Assembly (NCBI GenBank): GCA_034659735.1
Contig: JAYEHX010000185.1
Span: 1 to 63,727, forward strand
DNA: 63,727 nucleotides
From: Fidelibacterota bacterium
GTDB lineage: Bacteria > Fidelibacterota > Fidelibacteria > Fidelibacterales > Fidelibacteraceae
Reading direction: 5' to 3'
The position numbers and the translations under genes are program-made. Every line of letters begins with the position of its first letter. The first letter of the stretch is position 1. Below, piece after piece: positions 4,448-24,363 of this stretch. The notes under the pieces were generated by a model that did no database searches, had not been told where the DNA came from, and saw nothing but the letters and a program-made list of their open reading frames with translations.

Positions 4448-4502
4448 ATATTTAAAAATGTAATAGTAAATAAAACAGAAATTGAAAAAAGGGAGAATGA
4501 AA

Positions 4503-5383: not shown

Positions 5384-5415
5384 ATTTCCATTTAGAAAAA
5401 AAGAGGAAAGATAAT

Positions 5416-5844
5416 TTGGAAAAAAAAGATTTTACTCCGAAAATTATTGGATTTTTATGTAACTGGTGTACTTATGCGGCAGCGGATCAAGCGGGAGCGT
5501 TAAAAAAAGAAATATCTCCGAACTTTTCTGTAATTCGTGTAATGTGTTCGAGTCGGATAGATCATAATTTATTACTCACAACATTTTTTAATGGAGCAGA
5601 TGGGATTCTTATAGCCGGATGTCATCCGGGGGATTGTCATTATGATAAAGGTAATTATTATGCAAGAAGAAGATATGCACTTTTAAAAGATGTAATGAAA
5701 ACACTAAATCTGGAACCGGAAAGATTAGAGCTTTCTTGGATTTCAGCAGCGGAAGGGAAAAAATATTCCGAATTTGTGAATAAGTTTAGTGAAAAAATAA
5801 AGAAATTAGGTCCGAGTCCGATAAACGAGAGCAAATTGTTTTAA
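5416..5844 (+). CDS. mvhD: MvhD-like iron-sulfur protein (methyl-viologen-reducing hydrogenase delta subunit family), copy 1
   Basis: 142 aa with 'FLCNWCTYAAADQAG', 'VMCSSRID' and 'GCHPGDCHY'. Paralog of 11304..11729 and 14831..15250. TTG start. Confidence 0.88.
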   Translation: MEKKDFTPKIIGFLCNWCTYAAADQAGALKKEISPNFSVIRVMCSSRIDHNLLLTTFFNGADGILIAGCHPGDCHYDKGNYYARRRYALLKDVMKTLNLEPERLELSWISAAEGKKYSEFVNKFSEKIKKLGPSPINESKLF

Positions 5845-5906
5845 TGTTTATTGAAGTGCAATTTTAAATTTATTTCCAAAAATTAATAATAGATAGGTTT
5901 AAAAAT

Positions 5907-7193
5907 ATGAGTGAAGAAAAAGTTTTAATAATGGGTTCAGGGTTGCCGGGTATGAGAGCAAGTTTACTTTTGGCAAATGCAGGAAAGACGGTTTATCTTG
6001 TGGAAAAGTTATCCAATATTGGCGGTGATGCAATTAAAAATGAAGAGAGTTTTCCAAAGTTAGAGTGTTCTACCTGTATGGTTGCACCTACTCAGCAGGA
6101 GGTCTTGCACCATCCGAAAATCAAAACAATGACGCTCTGCAAGGTTGAAAAAATCACCGGAAAGGTAGGAAAATTTAATGTATCTATTAAGAAAAAAGCA
6201 AGATTTGTAAGTGAAACGGATTGTATTGGTTGCGATGCGTGTTTTCCACCTTGTCCCGTGAGTATCAGTAATGAATGGGAAGAAAATCTCATCGACAAAA
6301 AAGCAATATTCGTTCCATGTCCGGGTTCTTTGCCAAATGTTCCAATGATCAATACAGAACATTGCTTACATATAAATGGTAAGAAAAAAGAGTGTAAAGC
6401 ATGTGTTGAAGCATGTATGTTTGATGCTATAAACCTTGATGATAAAGATGAGATGATAGATGTAGAAGTTGGTGCAATTATTATTGCAATAGGATCTGAA
6501 ACTTATGATGTCTCAACTCTTTCACAATTTGGATATGGTAATAATCCCAGTGTTTATACAGCCATGGAATTTGAACGACTCTTTTCTTCAAACGGCCCTA
6601 CGAAAGGAGAATTGACTCTTAGAAAAACAGAAAAAGAACCAAAATCTGTTGCGATTATTCACTGTGTAGGAAGGGAAGAGCAGGGATATTGTTCAGGTAT
6701 TTGTTGTATGTATTCTGTAAAACATGCTCATTTCATAAAACATAAATTACCGAAAACAAAAATATATAACATTCATACAGATATTTGCGTTGCCGATAAG
6801 ACATATTTTAATTTTGTAGAAAATTTTAGAGATAAAGAGACGAAATTAATTTATCACTCATCTATGAAAGATTTAAAAGTAGAAAAAAATGGCAACGGAT
6901 TAAGTGTGAATTATTTAAGTGGATTGGGAGCAAAAGAGAAATTGGATGTTGATATGGTAATTTTGGCATCTGCTATGGTTCCGGGAGAAGAGAATAAAGA
7001 AATCAGTGAAATGATCGGAATTGATTTGGACAATCATGGATTTTTTATGACAAAAAAAGACATGGTAGGTTCGGTTGAATCAAGTAAAGAAGGAATTTTT
7101 ATTGCAGGATGTGCAGAAGGTCCTAAGGATATTCAAACATCTGTAATACAGGCAGAAGCGACAGTTAGCGGTGTTATGAAAATTTTTGAATAA
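5907..7193 (+). CDS. hdrA: HdrA-like FAD/Fe-S flavoprotein, first half of a split double-HdrA unit
   Basis: 'IMGSGLPG' dinucleotide fold, 'FPKLECSTCMVAP', inserted ferredoxin 'CIGCDACFPPCP...CKACVEACMF', and HdrA signature 'HCVGREEQGYCSGICC'. Colinear with residues 1 to about 430 of 11774..14809. Confidence 0.88.
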   Translation: MSEEKVLIMGSGLPGMRASLLLANAGKTVYLVEKLSNIGGDAIKNEESFPKLECSTCMVAPTQQEVLHHPKIKTMTLCKVEKITGKVGKFNVSIKKKARFVSETDCIGCDACFPPCPVSISNEWEENLIDKKAIFVPCPGSLPNVPMINTEHCLHINGKKKECKACVEACMFDAINLDDKDEMIDVEVGAIIIAIGSETYDVSTLSQFGYGNNPSVYTAMEFERLFSSNGPTKGELTLRKTEKEPKSVAIIHCVGREEQGYCSGICCMYSVKHAHFIKHKLPKTKIYNIHTDICVADKTYFNFVENFRDKETKLIYHSSMKDLKVEKNGNGLSVNYLSGLGAKEKLDVDMVILASAMVPGEENKEISEMIGIDLDNHGFFMTKKDMVGSVESSKEGIFIAGCAEGPKDIQTSVIQAEATVSGVMKIFE

Positions 7194-7248
7194 ATTATAA
7201 TTGAAAATAATATTCTTTACCAATTATTTGAATTAAGAAGGTAGAAAA

Positions 7249-8934
7249 ATGAAAAAGAAAATCGGAGTATATGTATGTGAATGTGGCCCCAATATCGCGA
7301 GTAAAATGCATATTGATAAAATATTGGAATCGGTAAAATCACATAATTCTGAAGATGTTGAAATTGTGCCTATTAAACATAAATTGTTATGTTCAGTGCA
7401 AGGAAAGAAATTTCTTGAAGAGGATATCAAAAAGCAGGAATTGACTCATCTCGTAGTCGCCGCATGTTCGCCGAGAGAACATAATACTACATTTATGAAT
7501 ATCTGTAAAAAATCTGATTTGAATCCATATTTATATAAAATGATAAATATTCGCGAACAGGTTGCTTGGGTTATTCCGGATAAAGAGAAGGCAACAGAAA
7601 AGGCGATTCAATACATAAATGGTGGTATTAGTCGAGTGCAATATCAAGGTGAATTATTTGAAAATAAAATAGATGCAATTCCGGATGTGCTTGTAATCGG
7701 TGGTGGAATTTCAGGAATTGAATCGGCACTTTCATTGGCTAATGAAAAAAGAAAAGTAGTATTGATAGAAAAAACAGATAAATTGGGTGGAAATTCTGTA
7801 TTTTATAAAAAGTTACTTCCGAGACAAGGAGCAGAAAAAGATTTTATCGCAAAGAAAATTGCAGAGGTGACAAATAATAAAAATATCAAAATTCATTTAG
7901 AGACAGAACTTGAAGAAATTCTCGGTTTTCTCGGAAATTTTGAAGTTACTTTACGAAATGTAAATAATAAAGATAATAAAATTGAGATAAAAATCGGTGC
8001 GACTATTGTTGCTACAGGATTTCAATTATCAAATCCGACAAGTTTTAAAAATGTAAAATATAAAGAGAGTGATGAAGTATATACTTCACTTGAGATAGAA
8101 AAAATGTTTTCAGAAAAAGGAAAAATATTGCTTTCATCCGGAAGTGAGCCGAAAACAGTTGCTCTTGTTCATTGTGTTGGTAAAGATGAAAAAAAATATT
8201 GTTCTCAAATCTGTTGTAATTATATGATGAAAATCGCAAACTATTTCAAAGAACAATCAAAGGAAATTAAAGTAAAGGAATTTTATAAAGATTTATGTTT
8301 ACCAAATAAAGATGACGAAAAATTATTTAGAGATACAGAGAAAAATGGTGTTGATTTTGTGAGAATCAAAGATATTGATATTCAAGGAAATGAAATAAAA
8401 TATACAGGAATCAACGGAAAAAATGAAAAGACGAAATTTGATATGATTGTTGTTGCACCACCAATTGAACCGAAAGCCGGAACTAAAAATTTATCACAAA
8501 TAATTGATATTCCTTTAGATGAATTTGGTTTTTTTCAAGAGGTACATCAGACAACTAATCCAACAGGAACTGCAACTGATGGAGTTTTTATTGTTGGAAC
8601 GGCACAAGGACCAAAAGGAATTTCAAATTCTATGTTGATGAGTCAAGCCGTTTCCGGGAAGATTAAAACGCAATTAATTCCCGGGGAAAAAATAATTCCG
8701 GAAGTGAAGACATCAGAAATTTTAGAAGCGTATTGTATGGGTTGTAAAACTTGTTTGGAAGTATGCTGTTTTGGAGCAATTTATTTTGATGAGATAAAGG
8801 GAATATCACGAGTGAATGAAGCACTTTGTCGCGGATGTGGAAATTGTATTGCGAGTTGTCCTTCTGAGGCGATAAGACACAAACATTTTACAAGTGAGCA
8901 GTTGTTTCAAGAAGTTATTGAGATATTGAAATAG
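7249..8934 (+). CDS. hdrA: HdrA-like FAD/Fe-S flavoprotein, second half of the split double-HdrA unit
   Basis: N-terminal 'VYVCECGPNIA...VVAACSPREH' domain, 'VIGGGISG', 'HCVGKDEKKYCSQICC', and C-terminal ferredoxin 'CMGCKTCLEVC...CRGCGNCIASCP'. Colinear with the C-terminal ~570 aa of 11774..14809. Confidence 0.88.
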   Translation: MKKKIGVYVCECGPNIASKMHIDKILESVKSHNSEDVEIVPIKHKLLCSVQGKKFLEEDIKKQELTHLVVAACSPREHNTTFMNICKKSDLNPYLYKMINIREQVAWVIPDKEKATEKAIQYINGGISRVQYQGELFENKIDAIPDVLVIGGGISGIESALSLANEKRKVVLIEKTDKLGGNSVFYKKLLPRQGAEKDFIAKKIAEVTNNKNIKIHLETELEEILGFLGNFEVTLRNVNNKDNKIEIKIGATIVATGFQLSNPTSFKNVKYKESDEVYTSLEIEKMFSEKGKILLSSGSEPKTVALVHCVGKDEKKYCSQICCNYMMKIANYFKEQSKEIKVKEFYKDLCLPNKDDEKLFRDTEKNGVDFVRIKDIDIQGNEIKYTGINGKNEKTKFDMIVVAPPIEPKAGTKNLSQIIDIPLDEFGFFQEVHQTTNPTGTATDGVFIVGTAQGPKGISNSMLMSQAVSGKIKTQLIPGEKIIPEVKTSEILEAYCMGCKTCLEVCCFGAIYFDEIKGISRVNEALCRGCGNCIASCPSEAIRHKHFTSEQLFQEVIEILK

Positions 8935-8991
8935 TTTAAGAGGTTTAAGAGGGTTAGAAGGTTAGAGGGTTAGAAGGTTAGAAGGTTAGGA
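8934..8991. repeat. 8-nt period tandem array GTTTAAGA/GGTTAGRR (about 7 units)
   Basis: Read directly: gtttaaga ggtttaaga gggttagaa ggttagag ggttagaa ggttagaa ggttagga. Starts at the last base of the hdrA stop codon. Confidence 0.9.
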
Positions 8992-9033
8992 ATTTTAGAG
9001 ATGATGGAATAATCGAATTACGAGGAGAGATAG

Positions 9034-10185
9034 ATGGCAAATAATGGAGCGAAAATATCTTTTAAAAATGGTCTGCAAAATCAGATGCGAGATTTTCTAA
9101 AAGAATGTATGAAAAAAGGAATTTTTGACGCAGTTGTTTTGCCTGTTAGAGTTCCGGCAAATGATTCTTATGCTTGGATTTTAATGAATGATATTTCTAT
9201 AGTTGATCAAGCAAATCCAATTCCACCTGTGATGCCGGTTCAAGGAGCCAAAGCTCTAAAATCATTAACTCGTAAAGGAGATGGCATCTTAAAAATTGCA
9301 ACAATTATGAAACCATGTGAAATTCGTGCTACTATAGAATTAGCAAAATTAAGTCAAGTCAATTTGGAAAATATTACTCTGATTAGTTATGATTGCCCCG
9401 GTGCTATTCCGATGAGTATTTATAATAATTTGTCTGATGATATGGAAATTTTCTATAACGATGTTGTTTCAGAAAATAATTTTGTCAGTGAAAAGATGAA
9501 AGAAGTATGCGGATTTTGTGTTGATTTTTCTGATGTCCCTGATGATTTACATTTTGGATTTACAGGATTAGAAAATGAAGTTTATATAATTCCAAATACC
9601 GGAAAAGGTAATTCTGTTTTAGAAAAATTAGAGATGAAAAGTAGTGAAAATTTGTCTCAATGGAAAAAAAATGTTGCTGATATAAAAAAAATTAAATCCA
9701 AAAATAGAATAGATATTTACAAACAGGTTCAACCGACTGTAGATGGATTAGATAACTTGCAAAAAACTTACGAAAAATGTATCGGTTGTCATAATTGTCA
9801 AAGTGCATGTCCAATTTGTTATTGCAGGCAATGTTTTTTTGATTCAACGGCCTCGGAACAATCTGCCAATACTTTGATTGATATTGCAGAAAAACGAGGT
9901 GGTATCGGGTTTCCGAGAGACAAAATAATGTTCCAAGTTGGACGAATGTCACACATGAGTTTATCTTGTGTTTCGTGTGGACAATGTATGGATGCCTGTC
10001 CGGTAAATATTCCTGTTGCGAAGATATTTAGTTTCGTTTCCTCGAAGACACAGAATACTTTTGAATATAGAGCAGGATTTTCAGGTGACGAACCAATACC
10101 ACTGAAAGTATATAAAGACGATGAACTTAGTAAAATTCACGAAATTGTAAAAAATGCTGAATCTGATGGGAGTGAACATGAGTAA
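9034..10185 (+). CDS. AsrA/HydB/FloxB-C-like 2x[4Fe-4S] iron-sulfur protein
   Basis: 'IMKPCEIRA' N-domain. Extended Cys motif 'CIGCHNCQSACPICYCRQC' plus 'CVSCGQCMDACP'. Paralog of the next gene and of 15253..16218. Confidence 0.75.
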   Translation: MANNGAKISFKNGLQNQMRDFLKECMKKGIFDAVVLPVRVPANDSYAWILMNDISIVDQANPIPPVMPVQGAKALKSLTRKGDGILKIATIMKPCEIRATIELAKLSQVNLENITLISYDCPGAIPMSIYNNLSDDMEIFYNDVVSENNFVSEKMKEVCGFCVDFSDVPDDLHFGFTGLENEVYIIPNTGKGNSVLEKLEMKSSENLSQWKKNVADIKKIKSKNRIDIYKQVQPTVDGLDNLQKTYEKCIGCHNCQSACPICYCRQCFFDSTASEQSANTLIDIAEKRGGIGFPRDKIMFQVGRMSHMSLSCVSCGQCMDACPVNIPVAKIFSFVSSKTQNTFEYRAGFSGDEPIPLKVYKDDELSKIHEIVKNAESDGSEHE

Positions 10186-11278
10186 AGTAATAAAAATAGA
10201 CATTAATTCCAAACAGGGATTGCTTGATTTTTTAGAACATTTATTATCTAACAATGAAATAAGCGGAGTTATGTCATTACGGAAAATAAATGAAAATGGA
10301 ATCTGTGATTATGGTTTGATTACAGAAGTTGATGATTTGAAATCCATCGAACCTTTTGCACCTGTAATGCCGGTCAATGCTTCCCATATATTATCATCAA
10401 TAACACCTGCAAAAAAACCTATTATAGCAATTATTAAACCTTGTGAATTGCGAGGATTTGTGGAAAGGGTGAAGCGGAAACAGGGATCTATGAAAAATAT
10501 AATTACTGTTTCATATACTTGCGGTGGAGTTCTGCCTTTGAATACTTTTCAAAGCGACGACAATGAAAAAATAGTTTCTGAATATTTTGAAACAATTAAA
10601 GGAACTGATACTCCGGAAAATGTCAGACCGGTTTGTAAAGCTTGCGAACATTTTATACCAATGACGGCAGATATAACAATTTCGGTATTTGGCAATAAAG
10701 ATTTTAATTCAAAATCTTGTCTGATGATGAATACAGAACAGGCAATAAAACTTTCCAAAAGTTATAAATGTGAAATTGTTGAGAAAAAGATGGACGATAA
10801 ACTTATGGATGAAATTCTCAAAAAAAGGAAAGCGGGTAAGGAAAAATTATACAAAGAAATTGCAATCACAAAAGATGGATTAGATGAATTTGTAGATATT
10901 TTTGGGAAGTGTATCGGTTGTCATGGATGCAGTAGGGTTTGTCCGATTTGCTATTGTACACTTTGTGATTTTGAATCATCAAATTACGATTATAAAGTAG
11001 ATTTGATTGAGAATGAATTATCCCAAAAAGATGGATTACGATTACCGCCTGATACAATTTTCTTTCAACTTGGTCGATTAAATCATATGAGTTTTTCTTG
11101 TATCGGATGTGGACAGTGTGAAGATGTCTGTCCTGCAGGAATTCCCGTATCTTCAATATTTAAGAAAGTAGGAGAAAGTACAGCCGAATTATTCGATTAT
11201 ATTCCGGGAAAAGATGTTGAAGAGATAATACCTGTTATGATGATTAAAGAGCAAGAATTTCCTGAAGTAGGTGAATAA
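10178..11278 (+). CDS. AsrA/HydB/FloxB-C-like 2x[4Fe-4S] iron-sulfur protein (tandem paralog)
   Basis: The track ORF starts at 10154. ATG 10178 follows GGGAG and overlaps the upstream stop (ATGAGTAA). Contains 'IIKPCELRG', 'CIGCHGCSRVCPICYCTLC' and 'CIGCGQCEDVCP'. Confidence 0.75.
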   Translation: MSKVIKIDINSKQGLLDFLEHLLSNNEISGVMSLRKINENGICDYGLITEVDDLKSIEPFAPVMPVNASHILSSITPAKKPIIAIIKPCELRGFVERVKRKQGSMKNIITVSYTCGGVLPLNTFQSDDNEKIVSEYFETIKGTDTPENVRPVCKACEHFIPMTADITISVFGNKDFNSKSCLMMNTEQAIKLSKSYKCEIVEKKMDDKLMDEILKKRKAGKEKLYKEIAITKDGLDEFVDIFGKCIGCHGCSRVCPICYCTLCDFESSNYDYKVDLIENELSQKDGLRLPPDTIFFQLGRLNHMSFSCIGCGQCEDVCPAGIPVSSIFKKVGESTAELFDYIPGKDVEEIIPVMMIKEQEFPEVGE

Positions 11279-11303
11279 AAAAAATAGAGAATAGGAGAAT
11301 AAA

Positions 11304-11729
11304 ATGGAAAAAGAATTTACACCAAGAATTACAAGTTTTGTATGTAAATGGTGTACATATACAGGAGCAGATTTAGCGGGAATAGGACGACTGCAATATC
11401 CAACTTCAATAATTGCGATGAGAGTACTATGTTCGAGTCGAATTGATCCGGTTTTTATTTTAAAGTCCTATCTGAAAGGTGCCGATGGAATTTTAATTGG
11501 CGGTTGTCATCCTGGAGATTGTCATTATGAAACAGGGAACTATTATACTCGAAGAAGATTTATGATATTAAAATCGATTTTTGATTCTCTTGGTTTAAAA
11601 AGTGACAGATTACGATTGTCTTGGATTTCAGCTTCAGAAGGTGGAAAATTTGCAAGAGTAGCAAATGAATTTACGGAAAAAATAAAAAAAATTGGTCCGA
11701 GCGATACTAAGAGGAATATGTTTCTTTAA
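11304..11729 (+). CDS. mvhD: MvhD-like iron-sulfur protein, copy 2
   Basis: 'FVCKWCTYTGADLAG', 'VLCSSRID', 'GCHPGDCHY'. Confidence 0.88.
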   Translation: MEKEFTPRITSFVCKWCTYTGADLAGIGRLQYPTSIIAMRVLCSSRIDPVFILKSYLKGADGILIGGCHPGDCHYETGNYYTRRRFMILKSIFDSLGLKSDRLRLSWISASEGGKFARVANEFTEKIKKIGPSDTKRNMFL

Positions 11730-11773
11730 TGTGAGATGAGAGAAGTTAAGAGGAAAAAATAGGAAAAGAATTC

Positions 11774-14809: not shown

Positions 14810-14830
14810 AAAAATTAGGAGAGATATAAA

Positions 14831-15250: not shown

Positions 15251-15252
15251 GA

Positions 15253-16218: not shown

Positions 16219-16220
16219 AA

Positions 16221-17255
16221 ATGATAATTAAAATTAATAAAAATAAGTTTGATAAATTTTTTAAAATTCTAAAAGGGAATTATGATGTTTTTGCTCCGAT
16301 AGGCGATGGCATGAATTCAAAATTTAGTCGAGTGAAATCTATTAAGGAAATAAACCTTGATATTTCAAATACAGACAAATCTCCAAAAGAAATATTTTTT
16401 CCGCAAACCGAAATACTTTTCAATTTTGAATCACAAAAAATCAATTTGAATGCAGAAAAAAATAAATCTTTTGCTGTTTGGGGAATGCGACCTTGTGATG
16501 CAAAAAGTTTAACATTAATTGATAAAATATTCGGAAGTGCAAAACAGAAACCTAATGACGAAAATTTTGAAGATCCTTATTGGAAATCAAAATATGACGA
16601 TGCTTTGATTTTTTCTATCGGATGCAACACTCCGGCATCTACATGTTTTTGTAATTGGTTTGAGAGTGGACCTTTTGAGAAAATCGGTTCTGATATTTTT
16701 GTTGTGAATACAGACGAATATTATTTAATGGAAGCCGTTAGTGAGAAAGGAAAAGTGTTTCTCAAGAAAGTGACTGATTTTGAAAAAGGCATAAAAAAAG
16801 ATGAAGAGAAAATTACAGAATTAAAAAAGAGAGCAGAAAGTTATTTAAAAAAATCTGTAGATTTAAAGGCATTAGATAATGTTATTGAGGAAATTTGGGG
16901 AAATCCGGTTTGGGATGAGCTCAGTAATAAATGTATAAATTGTGGTGCATGTACTTTTATTTGTCCCACTTGCCACTGTTTTGATATTCAAGATGAAGGA
17001 AAAGAAAAGGCAGGAAAACGAATACGATTATGGGATTCCTGTATGTTTCCGGATTTTACAGGTGAAGCATCGGGACATAACCCGAGATTACTTTCTAAAG
17101 ACAGATTTCGTCAGAGATTTATGCATAAATTCAAATATTTTCCAGATAATAATGACGATTATTTATGTACGGGATGTGGAAGATGTATCTATGTTTGTCC
17201 TGTGAATGTTGATATTAGAGAAGTGGTTGAGAAAATTGTGAAATGTGAATCGTGA
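16221..17255 (+). CDS. AsrA/HydB (sulfhydrogenase beta)/FloxB-like iron-sulfur protein
   Basis: 'GMRPCDAKSL', 'CINCGACTFICPTCHCFD', 'CTGCGRCIYVCP'. The architecture resembles anaerobic sulfite reductase subunit A and sulfhydrogenase beta. Confidence 0.75.
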   Translation: MIIKINKNKFDKFFKILKGNYDVFAPIGDGMNSKFSRVKSIKEINLDISNTDKSPKEIFFPQTEILFNFESQKINLNAEKNKSFAVWGMRPCDAKSLTLIDKIFGSAKQKPNDENFEDPYWKSKYDDALIFSIGCNTPASTCFCNWFESGPFEKIGSDIFVVNTDEYYLMEAVSEKGKVFLKKVTDFEKGIKKDEEKITELKKRAESYLKKSVDLKALDNVIEEIWGNPVWDELSNKCINCGACTFICPTCHCFDIQDEGKEKAGKRIRLWDSCMFPDFTGEASGHNPRLLSKDRFRQRFMHKFKYFPDNNDDYLCTGCGRCIYVCPVNVDIREVVEKIVKCES

Positions 17256-17289
17256 GAGATATAAATTTATGAAAAAAGAAAGGTAGTAG

Positions 17290-18123
17290 ATGAAAAATAC
17301 ATATATACCAGTTCCAATGAAGGTAGAAAATATAATTACAGAAGATCCGAATAAGACATTACGGACTTATGATTTATCTTTTATTAATTCGGAAGATAGA
17401 AAAAATTTCAAATATATGCCGGGTCAGTTTTGTGAATTTTCCATTCTCGGCAAAGGTGAATCGCCTTTCGGTATTGCCTCTTCGCCAACTGAAAAGGATT
17501 TTTTGAGATTCACTGTAAATAATACCGGCTTGGTGACGAATGAAATTCATTATTTGCGAAAGGGCGATAATGTAGGTATTCGTGGTCCACTCGGGAATTG
17601 GTATCCCGTAGAAAAATTTAAGGGCGAAAATATTGTAATAATAGGTGGTGGATTTGCTTTCACAACATTACGGTCGTTATTGATTTATTTGCTGGAACAT
17701 AGGAAAGATTATGGAGAAATTACAGTAATTTATGGTGCAAGAAATCCGGATTTATTTATCTATAAAGATGAAATAGCCGAATGGGAAAAACGAGATGATT
17801 TGAATTTGCATCTCACAATTGATAAAAAAGCAGATGGTTGGGATAAATTGGTTGGATTCGTTCCAGCTGTTGTAAAAGAATTAGCACCTAAAGCCGAGAA
17901 GACATGGTGTGTTGTTTGTGGTCCGCCTATTATGATAAAATTTACATTACCTGTATTGGTTCAATTAAAATTTCCAAATGATAGAATCTATACTTCACTG
18001 GAAAGAAAAATGAAATGTGGAATTGGAAAATGTGGTCGCTGTAATATCGGCTCAAAATATATTTGTATTGATGGTCCTGTATTTTCTATGGAAGATATAA
18101 ATAATATTTCTGAGGAGATTTAG
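17290..18123 (+). CDS. AsrB/HydG/FloxA-like FAD/NAD(P)-binding oxidoreductase with C-terminal [2Fe-2S]
   Basis: FNR-like 'MPGQFCEF', 'RFTV' and 'IIGGGFAF' motifs. C-terminal 'MKCGIGKCGRCN' cluster motif as in PyrK/AsrB-type proteins. Confidence 0.8.
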   Translation: MKNTYIPVPMKVENIITEDPNKTLRTYDLSFINSEDRKNFKYMPGQFCEFSILGKGESPFGIASSPTEKDFLRFTVNNTGLVTNEIHYLRKGDNVGIRGPLGNWYPVEKFKGENIVIIGGGFAFTTLRSLLIYLLEHRKDYGEITVIYGARNPDLFIYKDEIAEWEKRDDLNLHLTIDKKADGWDKLVGFVPAVVKELAPKAEKTWCVVCGPPIMIKFTLPVLVQLKFPNDRIYTSLERKMKCGIGKCGRCNIGSKYICIDGPVFSMEDINNISEEI

Positions 18124-18179
18124 AAGAGGGAGAAGAGGGTTAGAAGGTTAGGAGGTTAGAGGGTTAGTAAGTTAGGAAA
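18124..18179. repeat. 8-nt period purine-rich tandem array (GGTTAGRR family)
   Basis: aagaggga gaagaggg ttagaagg ttaggagg ttagaggg ttagtaag ttaggaaa. Begins immediately after the TAG stop at 18121-18123. Confidence 0.9.
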
Positions 18180-18200
18180 ATAATATAAAGGGAGAGATAT

Positions 18201-18671
18201 ATGGATAAGATAAATTTAAAAGATATGGATCCAAAGTTTAAAGATGATATTGTTTCACAACCGGGTGGAGAATTTTTTAGACGATGTTTCACTTGTGGGA
18301 CTTGTACTGCGGCTTGTCCTGTTGCAGAAGTTCATGATGAATACGATCCCAGAAAAATAATTAGAATGGCGATTCTCGGAATGCGAAAAGAAGTTCTTTC
18401 GTCTGATATTTTATGGATGTGTTCCAGATGTTACACTTGTTATGCATTATGTCCTCAAAATGTAAAATTTACAGATGTAATTAGTATTCTTAGAGATATG
18501 GCAATTAAGGAAGGATATGTATCAAAAGAGCGACTTGAACAGGCAAAAGAGACAGATAAACAGATTCAAGAATTGAGATGCAAAATTATTGATAACAAAT
18601 TACATCCTGAAGAAAAAAAAGTAAAAGAAATTAAAAAATCAATTGAAAAAGAATTAAGTGAGAATTGGTAA
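18201..18671 (+). CDS. hdrC: HdrC-like 2x[4Fe-4S] ferredoxin-domain protein
   Basis: 'CFTCGTCTAACP' and 'CSRCYTCYALCP' in a helical-ferredoxin arrangement. Charged C-terminal tail. Confidence 0.7.
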   Translation: MDKINLKDMDPKFKDDIVSQPGGEFFRRCFTCGTCTAACPVAEVHDEYDPRKIIRMAILGMRKEVLSSDILWMCSRCYTCYALCPQNVKFTDVISILRDMAIKEGYVSKERLEQAKETDKQIQELRCKIIDNKLHPEEKKVKEIKKSIEKELSENW

Positions 18672-18721
18672 ATAATGATAGATAAAAACAATCCAATAAT
18701 TAATTGGAGTGAGGTAATATT

Positions 18722-19846
18722 ATGATTCCAGAAAAGAAATTGAATTTTGATAATTTAAAAACTGAAGTAATAGAAAAAGGAATCTGTGGACGATGTGGAG
18801 GTTGTATCTCTTTCTGTTCGGCGAATAGTATAGATGCTCTGGAAATGGGAATAGATGGTCTGCCACGATATAGTGATCAGGAAAAATGTTTAGATTGTGG
18901 ATTGTGTTATCTTGTTTGTCCGCAAATCAAAATTCTGAATGAAGAGGTAAAAGAGGAATTTGGTTGGAAGGAACCTATTGGTCAATATTTGGATATTTTT
19001 TCAGTGAGAACGACTGACGATGAAATTTTAGATGTGGCTACAGATGGTGGATTTGTCACATCTCTACTTATCAATATGCTTGAAAATCATGAAATTGACG
19101 GAGCTATTGTATCACAAAAAACCGGTTTGTTTTCCAGGCAACCTATTGTAGCAACAACCAGGGAAGAATTAATCTCTGCGGCAGGTTCGCACTTTGATGA
19201 ATCTCCGAATCTCAAAGAAGTTGGTGATAATTATTCATCTTATATTTCAGTAATCAAAACTCTTGATAAAGCTTCAACAAAAAAGTTTTCTAAATTGGCT
19301 GTTGTTGGAACTCCATGTCAGATTAATACAATCAGGAAAATGCAAGTTTTGGGAATTGTTCCTTCTGATATTATCATATTTACAATAGGATTATTTTGTT
19401 TGCAATGTTTTTCATTAGATGATTTGATGCAGAAAGATTTTGCACAAAAACATCATCTTACCTTAGATGATATATCGAATTTGAATATTAAAGAGCAATT
19501 TATGCTTCAAATGAAATCTGGAATAACTATTAATGTTCCTCTATCCGAAATTGAAACCATTGCAAGACCGGCATGTTTGGTCTGTGAAACTTTTTCAAAT
19601 GAATTTGCTGATGTTGCAGTAGGTGGTTTAGCTTCACCTCATGGATATACAACTGTAGTTGTTCGCTCAATTGCAGGAAAAAAAATGGTTGCTGATGCTC
19701 TTTATAATAGAGTTATCGAACATTGTGATGCAGAAAATATTCATAAATCGGATGTTGATAAACTAAAGAAACTTGCACTTATTGCAGATTTTTCAAACAT
19801 GAAAAGGGAACGAGGAAAATCTTATCTAGAACAGATTGGAAGATAA
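18722..19846 (+). CDS. FrhB/FdhB-family flavoprotein (coenzyme F420 hydrogenase/dehydrogenase beta-like) with N-terminal ferredoxin
   Basis: 'CGRCGGCISFC...CLDCGLCYLVCP', 'DGGFVTSLL', 'VVGTPCQINTIRK'. Confidence 0.75.
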   Translation: MIPEKKLNFDNLKTEVIEKGICGRCGGCISFCSANSIDALEMGIDGLPRYSDQEKCLDCGLCYLVCPQIKILNEEVKEEFGWKEPIGQYLDIFSVRTTDDEILDVATDGGFVTSLLINMLENHEIDGAIVSQKTGLFSRQPIVATTREELISAAGSHFDESPNLKEVGDNYSSYISVIKTLDKASTKKFSKLAVVGTPCQINTIRKMQVLGIVPSDIIIFTIGLFCLQCFSLDDLMQKDFAQKHHLTLDDISNLNIKEQFMLQMKSGITINVPLSEIETIARPACLVCETFSNEFADVAVGGLASPHGYTTVVVRSIAGKKMVADALYNRVIEHCDAENIHKSDVDKLKKLALIADFSNMKRERGKSYLEQIGR

Positions 19847-19899
19847 TCATTTTATAGATTTTAAGAATTAAAAAATGTAAAAACACAGGAAATTATTAA

Positions 19900-22800
19900 A
19901 TGGATAATATCGAAAAAAATAAAAAATCAGGTTCTGTTCTTGTAATTGGTGCAGGTATCGCGGGTATTCAATCGTCATTAGATCTTGCTGATTCCGGATA
20001 TAAAGTTCATCTACTCGAAAAGACACCAGCGATTGGTGGAGTTATGGCTCAATTGGATAAGACATTTCCAACAAATGATTGTGCGATGTGTGTTATTTCA
20101 CCTAAACTTGTGGAGTGTGGTCGTCATTTGAATATAAATTTGATGACGGATGCTAAGTTGAAAGAGGTGACAGGTGGTCCGGGAAATTTCAAAGTAAAAA
20201 TATATAAGCATCCAAGATTTGTAGATCTTGATAAATGTACAGGTTGTGGTGAATGTGAAAAAGTTTGTCCTGTACATGTTGATTCGGAATTTGATGAAGG
20301 ACTTGTGAGCCGAACTGCGATTTATAAACCTTATGCACAAGCATCACCAAATGCCTTCGTTATTGAAAAGAAAGAAACAGCTCCTTGTCAGATTTCTTGT
20401 CCGTCCGGAATTCATGTTCAGGGTTACATCGCATTGACAGCAGAAGGTAACTACAAAGAAGCTTATGAACTTATTCGAAAAAATAATCCTTTTGTCTCAA
20501 TTTGTGGACGAGTTTGTTTTCATCCATGTGAAACCGAATGTCGTAGAGGCGAATATGATGAGCCATTGGCAATTGCATCTATAAAACGATATATTGCAGA
20601 TTATGTACATTCACATCATGAAGAATTGGATCTTAAAGAAGCAATCGTTCCAAAAGATAAAGAAAAAGTTGCAATTATTGGTTCTGGTCCGGCTGGATTA
20701 TCCTGTGGATTTTATCTTGCCAGAAAAGGTTATCAAGTTACGATTTTTGAAAAAAATAGCAAGACCGGTGGAATGATGCGTTCCTGTATTCCTCCTTATC
20801 GACTTTCACGATATGAACTGGATTGGGAAATTGAACAAATTTTAAAAGAGGGAATTGAACTAAAAACTAATCATGCTATAAATTCCAATGAAGATATTGA
20901 AGTATTACGAAAAGAAGGATTTAAAGCTTTTTATATTGCAATAGGTGCTCAAAAAAGTATTTCATTAAAAATTCTCGGTGAAGATCTTAATGGAGTTTAT
21001 GGTGGTATAGATTTCCTTCATAAAGTTAATTATAAGGAAAAAATTAAAGTAGGGAAAAAAGTTGCCGTTATCGGTGGTGGAAATACTGCAATTGATTGTG
21101 CTCGTACTGCTCGCAGGATGGGTGCAGAAGTAAGTTTGATATACAGGCGTACAAGACGAGAAATGCCGGCAGAATATCATGAAATTCTTGCAGCGAAAGA
21201 AGAGGGTATAAAATTTATATTTCTTACAAATCCCGTAGAAAATATTGGGGAAAATGGTAAGCTGAAATCAATTAAATTTGATGTAATGAAACTTGGTGAA
21301 GCTGATGAAAGTGGTAGAAGAAGACCATTGCCGACTGGTGAACAATTTACTGAAGAATTTGATAATATGTTAATTGCAGTGTCTCAATCTCCTGATCTTG
21401 CTGTGCTTGATGGATCTGGTGTTGATACTACGAAATGGAATACAATTAAAGCAGACCCTGTAACTTTTGAGACGAATGTAAAAGATATTTTTGCAGGTGG
21501 TGATGTAGTACTTGGTCCTGCCTCTATTGTGGAAGCTGTGGGTCAGGCAAATGAAGCGGTAGTGTCTATAGATAGATATTTGCGTAGTGAAAATATTGCA
21601 GAAGGTAGAACAGAAAAACCGGAATATCGACCGACAAAAAAACAGACAGAGTTCGTACCTGAAGAACTTAGAGTGCCGATGCCGATGGTTTCTGCAAAAA
21701 AGCGTGTCACAAATTTTGATGAATGTGAAAAAGGATATTCAGAAGAAGAGGTTCAGAAAGAAGCTGCTCGTTGCCTGGAATGTGGAATCTGTTCCGGATG
21801 TTTAGAATGTGAATCTGTTTGTGAAGCAGATGCAATTTTACACTCAATGCATGGCGAAGTAGAAGAGATAAATGTTGGTGCAATTATTGTTGCAACAGGA
21901 GCGGATAAATTTGATCCGACAGCGATGCATCAGTATGGATACGGAAGATATAAAAATGTGCTAACAAGTATTCAATTTGAAAGAATTCTCGCGGCATCAG
22001 GACCTTTTGAAGGACATTTGCAAAGACCTGATGACGGGAAGTTACCAAAAAAGATTGCGTGGATACAGTGTGTTGGTTCGCGAACGGAAGACCAGCATAT
22101 GCCATATTGCTCCTCTGTATGCTGTATGTATGCGATGAAAGAGGCGATAATAGCAAAAGAACATGAGCCGACAATAGAGCCGACAATTTTCTATATGGAT
22201 ATGAGAGCATTTGGAAAAGATTTTGATAAATATTATGATAAAGCCGAACAATCTCAAGTGCGATTTGTTAGGTCGCGAGTTGGAAAAATAAGGGAAATAT
22301 CTGAGACGGGAAATTTAGAATTATATTACACAAAAGAGAATGGTAATGTTGAGATTGAAGAATTTGATCTCGTTGTTCTCTCTATCGGATTAAGACCGCC
22401 GGAAGATCTGAAAGAGATGTCAGATGTGCTTGATATTCGTTTAAATTCTTATGGCTTTATTGATCATCTTGATGCGATGCCAATCGAAACAACTCGGCCC
22501 GGAGTTTTTGTTTGTGGTCCAGCTGTTTCTCCTAAAGATATTCCGGAAACAGTAATGCAAGCATCTGGTTCTGTGGCGGGAGCAGCGGAGGTTTTAGCAA
22601 AAGTTCGTGGAACAGAAATTACAATAAAAGAATTTCCACCTGAGAAGAATGTATTTGGAGAAAAACCAAGAATTGGCGTTTTTGTCTGCCATTGCGGAAT
22701 CAATATTGGCAGTATTGTAGATGTTCCTGGAGTTGTTGAATATATTAAAAAATTACCAAATGTAGTTTATGCATCGGATAATCTATTCACCTGTTCACAA

Positions 22801-24363
22801 GATACACAGGTAAAAATAAAAGAAATCATCAAAGAATATAATCTCAACAGAGTCGTTGTCTCATCTTGTTCGCCATCTACTCACGAGCCACTTTTTCAGG
22901 AAACGATAAGAGAGGCAGGACTAAATCCGTATTTATTTGAAATGGCTAATATTCGAAATCATTGTAGTTGGGTGCATCGTGATGATCATGCAAAAGCGAC
23001 GATTAAAGCAAAAACTCTTACTAGAATCGCTGTCGGAAAAGTAGGATTATTAGAACCGCTAAAAACCATTGCACTTGATGTGACTCAAAAAGGAGTTATA
23101 ATTGGTGGTGGTTTAGCAGGAATGACTGCAGCTTTATCCATCGCCGAGCAGGGTTTTGAAGTGACTTTAGTAGAGCAGAAAGATAAACTTGGTGGTAATC
23201 TTCAACGGTTAAGAGAAACTTGTGCCGGTGAAAATATTCAAGATTATTTAAAGAAAATGATTAATAAAATTGACAAACATCCATTGATAACGGTTTGCAG
23301 AAATTCAAAAGTTACGAGTATTGAGGGATATATTGGGAATTATAAAACAACAATAAGAAACACAGAATCAAGAGAATCTAAAGAACATAAATACGGTATC
23401 ATAATTATCACAACGGGTGCAAATGAGACAAAACCGAGTTCTTATCTTTATGGAGAATCTGAAAATGTGATGACGCAACTTGAACTTGACGAAGCACTTA
23501 ATAGTAATAATGAACAATTCCAGAAAACAAAAAATGTTGTAATGATTCAATGTGTAGGTTCGAGAAATGACGAGCATCCATATTGTTCAAGAGTATGTTG
23601 CACACAATCAATAAAAAATGCTATTACACTTAAAAAAACAAATCCTAAAATGAATATTTTCGTATTATATCGAGATATCAGAACTTATGGATTTAATGAG
23701 AAATATTATCAAGAAGCTCGTCAACTTGGTGTGCTTTTTATGAGATATGAAGTAGATAGAAAACCTGAAGTGGAAATTATTGAGCAGGGGAAAAAGCAGA
23801 AAATTTCTGTAAATATAAGAGATCATGTAATGGGAGCGGATGTGGAAATAATTGCAGATAAACTCATTCTCGCATCTGCTATGGAACCTCAAAAAGATGC
23901 AAATGTAATATCACAAATGTTGAAAGTCCCGTTGAATGAAGATAGATTTTTTGTGGAAGCACATGTAAAACTTCGTCCTGTCGATTTTTCTGCCGAGGGA
24001 ATATTTTTAGCCGGATTAGCTCATTCGCCTAAGATGATGGCAGAGACAATTTCACAAGCGAAAGGTGCAGCGGAAAGAGCATGTACAATCATTAGTTCCG
24101 ATGAATATTTTTCAGAAGCGAATGTTTCTGTAGCAGATCCAAATGTATGTGTAGGTTGTGGGATGTGTGTTCCCGTCTGCCCTTATGATGCTCCGGGATT
24201 GGTTTCCAAAAATGGTAAAGAAATTTGTGAGGTGAATACTGCATTATGTAAAGGTTGCGGAAGTTGTGCTTCAATCTGTCCGTCCGGTGCTATGCAACAG
24301 CTGGGATTTAAAGAAGAACAAACTTTGGAAATGGTTAATCAGGCATTAGCTACTTTATTGTAA
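19900..24363 (+). CDS. hdrL: HdrL-type giant flavoprotein: double HdrA with inserted GltD/NfnB-like NAD(P)H oxidoreductase module (1487 aa)
   Basis: HdrA motifs 'VIGAGIAG', 'FPTNDCAMC', 'QCVGSRTEDQHMPYCSSVCC', 'FVCHCGINIG', 'IIGGGLAG' and 'QCVGSRNDEHPYCSRVCC'. The insert at about aa 161-620 has 'ICGRVCFHPCETECRRG', 'IIGSGPAGLSCGFYLARKG' and 'VIGGGNTAIDCARTARRMGA', typical of glutamate-synthase small-subunit-like proteins. Confidence 0.88.
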   Translation: MDNIEKNKKSGSVLVIGAGIAGIQSSLDLADSGYKVHLLEKTPAIGGVMAQLDKTFPTNDCAMCVISPKLVECGRHLNINLMTDAKLKEVTGGPGNFKVKIYKHPRFVDLDKCTGCGECEKVCPVHVDSEFDEGLVSRTAIYKPYAQASPNAFVIEKKETAPCQISCPSGIHVQGYIALTAEGNYKEAYELIRKNNPFVSICGRVCFHPCETECRRGEYDEPLAIASIKRYIADYVHSHHEELDLKEAIVPKDKEKVAIIGSGPAGLSCGFYLARKGYQVTIFEKNSKTGGMMRSCIPPYRLSRYELDWEIEQILKEGIELKTNHAINSNEDIEVLRKEGFKAFYIAIGAQKSISLKILGEDLNGVYGGIDFLHKVNYKEKIKVGKKVAVIGGGNTAIDCARTARRMGAEVSLIYRRTRREMPAEYHEILAAKEEGIKFIFLTNPVENIGENGKLKSIKFDVMKLGEADESGRRRPLPTGEQFTEEFDNMLIAVSQSPDLAVLDGSGVDTTKWNTIKADPVTFETNVKDIFAGGDVVLGPASIVEAVGQANEAVVSIDRYLRSENIAEGRTEKPEYRPTKKQTEFVPEELRVPMPMVSAKKRVTNFDECEKGYSEEEVQKEAARCLECGICSGCLECESVCEADAILHSMHGEVEEINVGAIIVATGADKFDPTAMHQYGYGRYKNVLTSIQFERILAASGPFEGHLQRPDDGKLPKKIAWIQCVGSRTEDQHMPYCSSVCCMYAMKEAIIAKEHEPTIEPTIFYMDMRAFGKDFDKYYDKAEQSQVRFVRSRVGKIREISETGNLELYYTKENGNVEIEEFDLVVLSIGLRPPEDLKEMSDVLDIRLNSYGFIDHLDAMPIETTRPGVFVCGPAVSPKDIPETVMQASGSVAGAAEVLAKVRGTEITIKEFPPEKNVFGEKPRIGVFVCHCGINIGSIVDVPGVVEYIKKLPNVVYASDNLFTCSQDTQVKIKEIIKEYNLNRVVVSSCSPSTHEPLFQETIREAGLNPYLFEMANIRNHCSWVHRDDHAKATIKAKTLTRIAVGKVGLLEPLKTIALDVTQKGVIIGGGLAGMTAALSIAEQGFEVTLVEQKDKLGGNLQRLRETCAGENIQDYLKKMINKIDKHPLITVCRNSKVTSIEGYIGNYKTTIRNTESRESKEHKYGIIIITTGANETKPSSYLYGESENVMTQLELDEALNSNNEQFQKTKNVVMIQCVGSRNDEHPYCSRVCCTQSIKNAITLKKTNPKMNIFVLYRDIRTYGFNEKYYQEARQLGVLFMRYEVDRKPEVEIIEQGKKQKISVNIRDHVMGADVEIIADKLILASAMEPQKDANVISQMLKVPLNEDRFFVEAHVKLRPVDFSAEGIFLAGLAHSPKMMAETISQAKGAAERACTIISSDEYFSEANVSVADPNVCVGCGMCVPVCPYDAPGLVSKNGKEICEVNTALCKGCGSCASICPSGAMQQLGFKEEQTLEMVNQALATLL

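Follow-up and report, generated by a model that had tools for sequence, protein, structure and literature searches.

Flavin-based electron bifurcation by HdrA-type proteins is well understood only where an HdrB subunit reduces a disulfide, as in methanogens, and lately also where an HdrBC fusion passes electrons to ETF in benzoyl-CoA reductase. Here we describe a gene block at positions 5416–24363 of a 63,727-bp contig of a Fidelibacterota bacterium (the whole contig is the window referred to below), a type of block in which three BamE-like double HdrA units are stacked, NAD(P)H modules from two bifurcation families replace one another at a single point of insertion, and the association is with sulfur-carrier proteins, not with HdrB or DsrC. 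The block is very probably a multi-module HdrA-type NAD(P)H/ferredoxin bifurcating system. It is a serious possibility, if somewhat short of an even chance, that the longer stretch 265–24363 joins sulfur import and relay to this multi-module machine, which would use carrier-bound sulfane sulfur as its redox substrate. Blocks of this type are widespread among the uncultured anaerobes that abound in sulfidic waters, sediments and digesters, and the only earlier description that we found is a brief mention by Williams et al. 2021, who saw in Ca. Stygibacter that genes for TST, TusA and a sulfur transporter cluster with Hdr genes, and read them as sulfur oxidation driving the reverse tricarboxylic acid (TCA) cycle (PMC8542988).

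In the Elp-Hdr, Fdh-Hdr and Mvh-Hdr complexes electrons from a donor arm enter HdrA at its two terminal domains, C- and N-terminal, and then reach an MvhD-type [2Fe-2S] center, the path in Elp-Hdr running from FAD over four [4Fe-4S] clusters to the HdrA terminal domains, the MvhD homologue and the bifurcating FAD; the high-potential exit leads from the HA4 cluster through HdrC to HdrB, and the low-potential exit from a shuttle cluster to the inserted ferredoxin domain (PMC12350162). BamE of the class II benzoyl-CoA reductase of Geobacter metallireducens, known from cryo-EM, is a fused HdrA dimer with clusters E1–E7, a bifurcating FAD in its first TrxR-like domain (TrxR1) beside a Cys59-Cys62 pair, and a non-bifurcating FAD in the second (TrxR2); BamF is its MvhD-like adaptor, BamGHI its confurcating input, and BamD, an HdrBC fusion, takes its high-potential electron (bioRxiv 10.64898/2026.04.10.717634). 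FlxABCD-HdrABC is an NADH-linked version of Hdr (PMC5947623). HdrL is defined as HdrA fused to an NAD(P)H module resembling the small subunit of glutamate synthase (PMC2702500), and an HdrL/MvhD/FdhB-like complex of Syntrophobacter fumaroxidans was detected solely under sulfidogenic conditions, with sulfate present (PMC5947623).

Three double HdrA units and their redox modules

The block comprises 14 open reading frames (ORFs), all on the + strand, and runs from the start codon of mvhD1 to the stop of the ORF for a 1487-aa protein; intergenic gaps are 100 nt or less, and overlaps occur at two pairs (10154/10185 and 15247/15250). Domain calls for the block proteins come from searches of Pfam, NCBIfam and the PDB (phmmer), with all NCBIfam HdrA and HdrC scores falling under the curated cut-offs. 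In addition, 62 related loci (numbered below with the prefix L) were annotated with the window proteins as probes, their lineages being the labels of the metagenome-assembled genomes (MAGs). A preliminary description of the window had placed between these bounds three MvhD proteins, three double-HdrA units, an HdrC-like protein, an FrhB-like protein and an HdrL, together with two NAD(P)H entry modules. The block is confirmed as described: the profile searches match both its coordinates and the named gene set, and the two entry modules are found as an FlxCBA-like set and as the GltD/NfnB-like module of HdrL.

The first double HdrA is split between two genes. HdrA1a (5907–7193; 428 aa), which matches positions 139–559 of the NCBIfam HdrA2 model (E 1e-112), consists of TrxR-like FAD domain 1 with a C54/C57 pair, an inserted 2x[4Fe-4S] ferredoxin domain and the HA4 cysteines, and HdrA1b (7249–8934; 561 aa; same model, E 3e-124) consists of the HdrA N-terminal domain, TrxR-like domain 2 with neither Cys pair nor inserted ferredoxin domain, and a C-terminal 2x[4Fe-4S] domain. 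The second, HdrA2 (11774–14809; 1011 aa), is fused, has two GxGxxG FAD sites and cysteines sufficient for seven [4Fe-4S] clusters, and matches PDB chain 5odc_A in three stretches (E 1e-207): residues 6–368 align with residues 144–503 of Methanothermobacter wolfeii HdrA (5ODC), that is, the TrxR-like FAD domain with its inserted ferredoxin domain; 448–602 with 2–156, the N-terminal domain; and 828–1005 with 467–646, the end of the second TrxR-like domain and the C-terminal ferredoxin domain. The same order, TrxR1 with inserted ferredoxin followed by N-terminal domain, TrxR2 and C-terminal ferredoxin, is common to the split pair, HdrA2 and the 1487-aa HdrL. The cysteine pair (FPTNDC-x2-C, equivalent to Cys194/197 of 5ODC) and the inserted ferredoxin domain are confined to the first halves, and the N-terminal and C-terminal ferredoxin domains to the second. 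With the canonical accessory domains divided in this way between halves, each double HdrA is an asymmetric pseudo-dimer and not an HdrA homodimer with all four parts in each protomer.

All six halves possess a TrxR-like FAD domain with GxGxxG, the four-cysteine HA4 motif (C...C-x3-C-C), and a lysine five residues past the CC motif (the Lys409 position of 5ODC); the HA4 cysteines are invariant, and the GxGxxG and lysine are kept, in 28–46 orthologues, and orthologue alignments show enough invariant cysteines in each double unit for seven [4Fe-4S] clusters. The signature CxGxR...CSxxCC, earlier ascribed to every half, holds for its four HA4 cysteines in six of six; its first part reads CVGSR in four halves but CVGR/CVGK in the split pair. 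Compared half for half, HdrL without its insert is 48–50% identical to the fused unit, and the split unit is 30–34% identical to both, from which it follows that the pseudo-dimer is older than its triplication.

BamE is the closest counterpart of such a unit. Both have, per unit, two TrxR-like FAD domains and the cysteines needed by seven [4Fe-4S] clusters, with a CxxC pair only in TrxR1, and both have an MvhD-type [2Fe-2S] adaptor; in the window the unit is fused in HdrA2 and HdrL and occupies two genes in unit 1. The differences are that three units stand in one block, that the window contig encodes no homologue of BamD, the HdrBC fusion, or of BamB of the BamBC tungsten module, and that the window MvhD proteins are short (~140 aa) whereas BamF is long and contains selenocysteine. 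BamE is described as having a lysine near flavin N5 in TrxR1 but a glutamine in TrxR2. The second halves in the window keep the lysine at the position that, going by this description, may correspond to Gln768 of BamE.

The third unit, HdrL (19900–24363; 1487 aa), carries an NAD(P)H module of the GltD/NfnB type (PRK12771, 1e-164; gltA, 6e-114) as an insert at about aa 126–624, with Pfam Fer4_20 and Pyr_redox_2 at aa 160–560. The insert lies between the two cluster motifs of the inserted-ferredoxin domain in half 1. With HdrA and a GltD-like module in one protein and mvhD genes co-located, it is an HdrL in the defined sense. In many relatives the third unit instead consists of three genes, namely an N-terminal HdrA piece fused to NuoE, a NuoF-like gene, and a gene in which the remainder of the double HdrA is joined to a Fer2_4 domain (NuoG N-terminal). 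By BLASTP, aa 10–134 of the NuoE fusion match HdrL 1–125 with 71% identity and aa 221–1077 of the Fer2_4 fusion match HdrL 625–1483 with 58%, so that the break point coincides exactly with the insertion site of the GltD module (window 19900–24363 against L002:18020–23063 and L005:16951–22877). These alignments indicate that two NAD(P)H modules, one NfnB-like and one HydBC/BamGH-like, can replace each other at one site, which in canonical HdrA belongs to the low-potential branch. The Bam system likewise has a NuoEFG/HydBC-like NADH/ferredoxin input, a module found in the third unit of the relatives, but there it is placed at the C-terminal ferredoxin domain of BamE, whereas the NAD(P)H module of the window lies within the inserted-ferredoxin domain. 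The HdrL-MvhD(-FdhB-like) loci of Desulfobacterium autotrophicum and S. fumaroxidans share the large fusion, the mvhD and an FdhB-like Fe-S gene, and their link to sulfidogenic growth is circumstantial. They differ in that HdrABC or dsrABC is present and the hosts are sulfate reducers, while the HdrL of the window type is one of three double HdrAs and occurs in fermentative FCB-type lineages with TusA/DsrE.

Between the first and second units lie FeS1 (9034–10185) and FeS2 (10154–11278), paralogues of 30% identity whose genes overlap by 32 nt, FeS2 being assigned by Pfam and by its cysteine pattern. The two had been taken for AsrA-like proteins. By sequence both are instead full-length homologues of FdhB/ElpB, FeS1 also by fold, and they are better read as a donor arm of that type. 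FdhB, the beta subunit of F420-type formate dehydrogenase, docks in methanogen supercomplexes on MvhD and HdrA, and subunits of this family bind FAD and exchange a hydride with F420. FeS1 has 15 invariant cysteines, matches PDB chains 9t1s_M (1e-32; collinear over 383 aa), 8rvu_E (1e-25) and 7bkb_E (2e-16) by phmmer, and combines full-length homology with cysteines for four [4Fe-4S] clusters, as expected of such an arm. An invariant 4+7+4 cysteine pattern is common to FeS1, FeS2 and the FlxC-like protein described below. The AlphaFold2 model of FeS1 (mean pLDDT 72) is reliable for residues 1–245 only and poor in the cluster-binding C-terminus, and is therefore unfit for judging cofactor sites; with this model Foldseek places 8rvu_E (ElpB of Elp-Hdr) and 7bkb_E (FdhB) on top (TM 0.58), followed by FrhB, HCAR, Fsr and sulfhydrogenase beta. 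The likeness to ElpABC-HdrABC and FdhAB-MvhD-HdrABC (8RVU, 7BKB) thus lies in an FdhB/ElpB-type flavin protein with four [4Fe-4S] clusters beside an MvhD homologue and HdrA; the window differs in having no FdhA/ElpA partner, with the paralogous pair FeS1 and FeS2 in its place, and no HdrB.

The fused unit is followed by genes for an Flx-type module. MvhD3 (14831–15250), equivalent to FlxD, precedes an FlxC-like protein (15247–16218) with 16 invariant or nearly invariant cysteines that matches the C-terminal part of FdhB (chain residues ~220–380; PDB 7bkb_E, 8e-28), an FlxB-like protein (16221–17255) that resembles HydB (sulfhydrogenase beta) and AsrA (Pfam Fer4_22, 1e-34; NCBIfam ShyB, 8e-54, and AsrA, 1e-46; PDB 9nez_B, 1e-42), and an FlxA-like protein (17290–18123) that resembles HydG/AsrB, with FAD, NAD(P)H and [2Fe-2S] sites (Pfam NAD_binding_1, DHODB_Fe-S_bind and FAD_binding_6; NCBIfam). 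The Pfam, NCBIfam and PDB matches bear out the earlier naming of a FloxC/FloxB(AsrA)/FloxA(AsrB)-like module, and the components that define FlxABCD, an FAD/NAD(P)H protein, two HydB-like Fe-S proteins and an MvhD beside hdrA, are all present. As in the Flx(Flox)ABCD-HdrABC systems of Desulfovibrio and others, FlxA (FAD/NAD), the HydB/FdhB-like FlxB and FlxC, and an MvhD in the place of FlxD stand next to HdrA and HdrC; in contrast to these, the order in the window is reversed (D-C-B-A), the HdrA is a fused double unit, HdrB is absent, and the context is TusA/DsrE instead of DsrC. Next come an HdrC-like 2x[4Fe-4S] protein of 156 aa with no HdrB partner (18201–18671; NCBIfam TIGR03290, 1.6e-27, and qmoC, 4e-21, each under its cut-off), a gene that follows flxA in the related loci as well, and an FrhB-like flavin/Fe-S protein with an N-terminal 2x[4Fe-4S] domain (18722–19846; Pfam FrhB_FdhB_N and _C; PDB 8rja_E, 2e-47, also 8riu_B and Fsr, 7npa_A).

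The three FlpD/MvhD proteins (Pfam E 1e-47 to 4e-54) are MvhD1 (5416–5844; [2Fe-2S] adaptor with five cysteines; FlpD 1.4e-49), MvhD2 (11304–11729; 2e-47) and MvhD3 (4e-54). In 28 relatives (among L008–L056) 62 mvhD genes have an in-frame TGA, presumably read as selenocysteine, at the first cysteine of the motif G-C-HPGDCHY, the site of Cys69, Cys68 and Cys67 in MvhD1, MvhD2 and MvhD3 of the window. The TGA type affects all three copies and is found in most Cloacimonadota relatives and in the Delongbacteria locus; the Cys type (60 genes) is found in the window, its closest relatives, and the Fermentibacterota, KSB1, Krumholzibacteriota and Zixibacteria loci.

Sulfur-relay genes beside and within the block

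The block is adjoined on its 5' side by a cassette, also on the + strand, for TusA, YeeE, three secreted rhodaneses and a porin. TusA (265–492; 75 aa; Pfam TusA, E 8.6e-28) is a sulfur carrier of the YeeE-linked type with an LSCPMP active-site motif, and its orthologues sit before YeeE in 11 related loci. The YeeE/YedE-family inner-membrane transporter (507–1724; Pfam Sulf_transp, E 8e-49) is predicted to carry a sulfur compound, and with its adjacent TusA it has the two parts of YeeE/TsuA-YeeD thiosulfate uptake, a Sulf_transp membrane protein and a TusA-like partner. Rhodanese 1 (1738–2271; Pfam Rhodanese, 8e-16) and rhodanese 2 (2329–3339; 1e-20) have lipoprotein-type signals (…LLFMSC, as read at the N-terminus, and …FTVGC, respectively); an OprO/P-type outer-membrane anion porin (3398–4447; Pfam Porin_O_P, 5e-15), whose gene is kept between rhodanese genes in relatives, separates them from rhodanese 3 (4482–5351), a tandem-domain protein with a signal peptide (Pfam Rhodanese, 6e-36 in two stretches; NCBIfam 3-MST-like, 3e-35). 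The 59 nt that separate the genes of rhodanese 2 and the porin include, at positions 3351–3385, a hairpin with a 15-bp stem (GCAATAAAGAGCGGA…TCCGCTCTTTATTAC) and A/T runs at its flanks; it might terminate transcription, partially or in both directions, or mark a processing site.

The best NCBIfam model for the transporter is the selenium-linked YedE/FdhT (4e-32), with the thiosulfate transporter TsuA next (5e-29). Since these scores are nearly equal and both far under their cut-offs, the protein belongs to a distinct subfamily of ambiguous specificity. The top model, a weak match of rhodanese 3 to ExtH (NCBIfam) and the many TGA-containing mvhD genes would suit a cassette of YedE/TusA(YedF)-like proteins and rhodaneses that supplies selenium for selenocysteine-containing MvhD. 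This we consider very improbable because the window, L001, L002 and L004–L007 have Cys-type MvhDs yet retain the cassette; moreover, DsrE insertions, a porin and three rhodaneses would be excessive for the supply of a trace element.

Sulfur carriers recur with the block well beyond the window. Fused double HdrAs of ~1010–1020 aa with 55–84% identity are found in MAGs labelled Cloacimonadota, KSB1, Krumholzibacteriota, Fermentibacteria, Delongbacteria, WOR-3, Zixibacteria and Stahlbacteria, and the loci of Ca. Stygibacter frigidus and Ca. Tenebribacter mawsonii are among the matches. The closest relative, L007, is collinear with window positions 5410–24364 over 19.1 kb at 75% nucleotide identity. 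This locus (82% protein identity) is labelled Neomarinimicrobiota and L011 Armatimonadota, all other close matches being labelled Cloacimonadota; the two odd labels may reflect mis-binning, mislabelling or lateral transfer. Among the related loci the core hdrA2-mvhD3-flxC-flxB-flxA-hdrC is nearly universal and the most widespread part, with unit 1 in the order mvhD1-hdrA1a-hdrA1b-FeS1-FeS2-mvhD2 on its 5' side. TusA, mostly with DsrE before it, lies directly 5' of mvhD1 in 17 of the 21 related loci that have upstream sequence. The TusA-YeeE-rhodanese-porin cassette is 5' of the block in some genomes and in 11 loci stands inside it, right after hdrC and before frhB/hdrL, and 7 of 51 loci have DsrE-family genes, confirmed by Pfam, as insertions behind hdrA2, and 6 of 45 have them between flxB and flxA. 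The second type of TusA in relatives, encoded with DsrE just 5' of mvhD1 (L001:2975–3583 and equivalents), has an extra invariant cysteine (ADCPSFP where the classic type has ADDP) and could therefore form an intramolecular disulfide or trisulfide, like DsrC.

Of 40 related loci with a length of at least 12 kb, 24 have sulfur-relay genes in synteny with the Hdr block, counted over the sampled flanks; these 24 fall under at least seven lineage labels, and the positions of the sulfur-relay genes vary, some being inside the block. They occur in 14 of 15 loci of Cloacimonadota, in the single loci of KSB1, Krumholzibacteriota, Zixibacteria and Delongbacteria (1/1 each) and in one of two of Stahlbacteria. 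The preliminary description had named a lack of any synteny between cassette and block in relatives as grounds for giving up its reading, and these counts show that synteny is common. Nothing argues more strongly for sulfur carriers acting together with the machine than a linkage that outlasts rearrangement, with carriers embedded at several places. Overall, that description stands as to the modular NAD(P)H/ferredoxin HdrA-type architecture, the absence of HdrB and the synteny; its AsrA-like proteins have a different identity, and the lack of HdrB is not universal among relatives (L012 and L061, discussed below).

Substrate, missing HdrB and direction of electron flow

What follows on complex formation, wiring, substrate and direction of electron flow we infer. 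The 24-kb stretch 265–24363 would be one functional system in two parts. In the first, sulfur anions would be imported and relayed from the porin to the secreted rhodaneses, YeeE and TusA, to which most relatives add DsrE and the two-cysteine TusA. The second would be a soluble multi-module HdrA-type machine for flavin-based bifurcation or confurcation. Half 1 of each double HdrA would hold the flavin with the nearby CxxC pair and use the inserted ferredoxin domain as its low-potential exit; half 2 would provide the N-terminal shuttle-cluster domain and a C-terminal ferredoxin domain that takes electrons in and hands them on via the MvhD [2Fe-2S] adaptor, with presumably one MvhD per double HdrA, the count being three to three in the window and its relatives. 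Reducing equivalents of NAD(P)H would enter or leave through FlxA-FlxB-FlxC and the GltD-like insert of HdrL, and reducing equivalents may also pass the FdhB/ElpB-type FeS1 and FeS2 and the FrhB-type flavin/Fe-S protein. FlxA, FlxB and FlxC would feed the fused unit, whose high-potential electrons the HdrC-like protein would accept, and FeS1 with FeS2 would form the arm of the split unit. The third redox partner would be the persulfide sulfane sulfur on TusA/DsrE, derived from polysulfide or thiosulfate and most likely reduced to sulfide, which would give fermenters an electron sink coupled to the ferredoxin pool. The place of HdrB could be taken by the flavin sites of FrhB/FdhB type that lie downstream of HdrC, or by an HdrB from another part of the genome.

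Sulfur reduction is favored here because the hosts are anaerobic fermenters of sulfidic habitats, because the defining parts of sHdr are missing, and because there is a physiological precedent in Thermotoga; a confurcating reduction of thiosulfate would be no less plausible. In T. maritima a polysulfide/thiosulfate reductase works in the cytoplasm with NAD(P)H, and a yeeE/dsrE/tusA cluster is induced 42-fold by thiosulfate (PMC9431562). Like T. maritima NSR and the beta-gamma part of Pyrococcus furiosus sulfhydrogenase, the window type would join YeeE/TusA/DsrE import to cytoplasmic NAD(P)H-dependent sulfur reduction as a fermentative electron sink, and its FlxB and FlxA are homologues of HydB and HydG of the latter; NSR differs as a single flavoprotein of the CoA-disulfide-reductase type without HdrA, MvhD or bifurcation. 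More ambitious versions are correspondingly more tentative. It is rather doubtful that the three HdrA units are hierarchically coupled in a cytoplasmic super-assembly in which a TusA/DsrE persulfide acts as the 'heterodisulfide' without an HdrB-type non-cubane cluster. That such an assembly couples polysulfide or thiosulfate reduction to the ferredoxin pool, by bifurcation or by confurcation of NADH and ferredoxin, at a new kind of catalytic site, seems on the unlikely side, and we would put no greater weight on its spanning Cloacimonadota, KSB1, Krumholzibacteriota, Zixibacteria, Delongbacteria and Stahlbacteria as an unrecognised mode of energy conservation in FCB-type fermenters. A functional sulfur link would explain how 'fermenters' shed or gain reducing power through cryptic sulfur cycling, and would establish a kind of acceptor chemistry new to HdrA systems; without such a link the block still illustrates clearly how bifurcation units are assembled from modules in nature.

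Several observations weigh against a carrier-linked, sulfur-reducing machine. No DsrE was found on the whole 63.7-kb contig by Pfam and related searches, and the DsrE-TusA2 pair that most relatives hold 5' of mvhD1 is missing from the window (none between 5351 and 5416). Sulfur-relay genes appear in the sampled flanks of none of the five Fermentibacterota loci and neither of the two WOR-3 loci of at least 12 kb; for Fermentibacterota this means either that the link is dispensable or that the genes are located in other parts of their genomes. Scans for sigma-70 promoters and intrinsic terminators gave the same counts as shuffled sequence; they are uninformative on operon structure and lend no support to co-transcription. 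The block has no CCG/HdrB gene by profile searches, and in two relatives, L012 (3288–4166) and L061 (on the minus strand, beside hdrC), a canonical two-CCG HdrB follows, with HdrC, right after mvhD2 (CCG Pfam 2e-17), so that the lack of HdrB is the majority state of the block and not a universal one. The couple of S0 or polysulfide with HS- lies at about -270 mV, only slightly above NAD(P)H, and is a weak 'high-potential' acceptor for driving ferredoxin reduction. Finally, FdhB/ElpB arms are electron donors in the characterized complexes, which suits an oxidative reading too.

The loci whose flanks have no sulfur genes, which include some unclassified ones in addition to Fermentibacterota and WOR-3, could be explained if the block serves sulfur-independent redox balancing, either NADH/NADPH/ferredoxin interconversion of an Nfn/Stn-like kind or the use of another hydride acceptor at the FrhB/FdhB flavins, and the sulfur genes are separate, serving for example assimilation or detoxification. 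The wide distribution of the hdrA2-mvhD3-flxCBA-hdrC core, the presence of two distinct NAD(P)H modules, and the fact that FrhB-family flavins normally serve diffusible cofactors fit this account as well. We hold it to be rather unlikely: the embedding of carrier genes at several positions within the block in independent lineages is hard to put down to chance neighborhood, and the swap of GltD-type for NuoEF-type modules in the third unit speaks against a fixed role as NADH/NADPH transhydrogenase.

As regards electron partners, the preliminary description had reported that HdrB, [NiFe]-hydrogenase, formate dehydrogenase and DsrC are absent from the cluster, and the profile searches agree and extend this to the rest of the contig, where no hydrogenase large or small subunit, FdhA (the molybdopterin subunit of formate dehydrogenase) or DsrC was found. 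A link via MvhD to hydrogenase or formate dehydrogenase is rejected for this contig, on which neither MvhA/G nor FdhA is present, and the two-CCG HdrB beside HdrA and HdrC that characterizes HdrABC heterodisulfide reductase is not found in the block. The sole CCG protein on the contig, at 29741, is TfrB/HdrD-like and, as reported before, paired with an adjoining GlcD-like gene. We considered this GlcD-CCG pair (28301–30808) as the missing high-potential partner in a lactate-linked confurcation and keep it only as part of the possibility, discussed below, of an HdrB encoded elsewhere. A different gene follows hdrL in L001/L007 and L033, the relatives that reach that far, and no homologue of the CCG protein was found in the related loci, a comparison of little power.

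QmoABC of sulfate reducers offers a precedent for an HdrB-less arrangement, with two HdrA-like proteins, an MvhD-like domain, an HdrC-like subunit and a place in sulfur metabolism. It differs in being anchored in the membrane through QmoC and in serving AprAB, while the block has neither a membrane domain nor an apr gene. A more conventional possibility is thiol/disulfide chemistry of the canonical kind, in which an HdrB or an HdrD/DsrK-like CCG protein encoded elsewhere docks on the HdrC-like subunit and a DsrC-like or low-molecular-weight disulfide is the substrate. HdrB would on this view be missing from the gene order alone. The hdrC-hdrB genes of L012 and L061, the constant presence of an HdrC-like gene in related loci, the CCG protein at 29741 and the role of BamD as the high-potential exit of BamE all favor it. 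It is nonetheless unlikely, given that the sampled flanks of the related loci contain no CCG gene except in L012 and L061, and that the gene at 29741 is paired with glcD amid lactate/TCA genes and is not the constant neighbor of hdrL.

Reduction of carrier-bound sulfur has its counterpart in an oxidative reading, in which imported thiosulfate or sulfane sulfur would be the donor and the Hdr machine would lift electrons to NAD(P)+/ferredoxin for reductive-TCA carbon fixation. This is the proposal of Williams et al. 2021 for Ca. Stygibacter and Ca. Tenebribacter (PMC8542988), and TusA/DsrE/rhodanese sets are stated always to accompany sulfur-oxidizing sHdr, where they feed sHdr-LbpA (PMC11094781). 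The FdhB/ElpB-type arms beside DsrE-TusA, which are donor arms in known complexes, and the TCA-cycle genes downstream on the contig also speak for it. As in sHdr-LbpA, an Hdr-like complex is linked through its genome context with sulfur carriers (TusA, DsrE, rhodanese) and with import of the YeeE kind; of this relay the window has TusA and three rhodaneses, DsrE being present in relatives only. However, sHdr consists of HdrB1/B2, HdrC1/C2, a simple non-bifurcating HdrA and LbpA, and is without MvhD, Flx or HdrL; on the window side HdrB1/B2 and LbpA were not found on the contig, and no lipoyl/GcvH-type domain occurs among its annotated ORFs of at least 80 aa. Membership in sHdr is rejected on the absence of HdrB and LbpA. 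No enzyme that forms or handles sulfite is present, and an acceptor of high potential is not apparent for an obligate anaerobe. Without such an acceptor the S0/sulfite couple is much too positive to reduce NAD+ or ferredoxin, and we regard the oxidative direction as distinctly unlikely. The system of the block is not a member of HdrABC, sHdr or Bam, and would operate along the lines of BamE/F, FlxABCD, HdrL and the ElpB/FdhB arms, whose modules it shares.

Flanking genes and distant relatives

The contig has a G+C content of ~33% and a strongly positive GC skew, with nearly all genes on the + strand. On the 3' side of the block, positions 24522–41157 hold central-carbon genes, among them two LarA-like genes, phosphoenolpyruvate carboxykinase, GlcD with the TfrB/HdrD-like CCG protein, two Ldh/Mdh paralogues, aconitase, citrate synthase, isocitrate dehydrogenase and malic enzyme, a set consistent with the discussion of TCA and reverse-TCA cycles for these Cloacimonadota.

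The most distant loci, L057, L060 and L062 from Planctomycetota MAGs (45–47% identity), encode an HdrL-type protein with Flx genes, and L057 and L062 also a large MvhD-containing fusion. In L057 there are in addition a protein with a MetF C-terminal domain and genes resembling those of the folate pathway, which marks a separate variant linked to methylenetetrahydrofolate reductase. None of the three MetF-linked Planctomycetota loci of at least 12 kb has a sulfur-relay gene (0/3). In two further relatives, L037 and L040, an ORF of 133–142 aa (…YRDLEVWQKS…) lies between hdrA2 and mvhD3; from its sequence it may be a four-helix-bundle protein of the kind found in intervening sequences of 23S rRNA.

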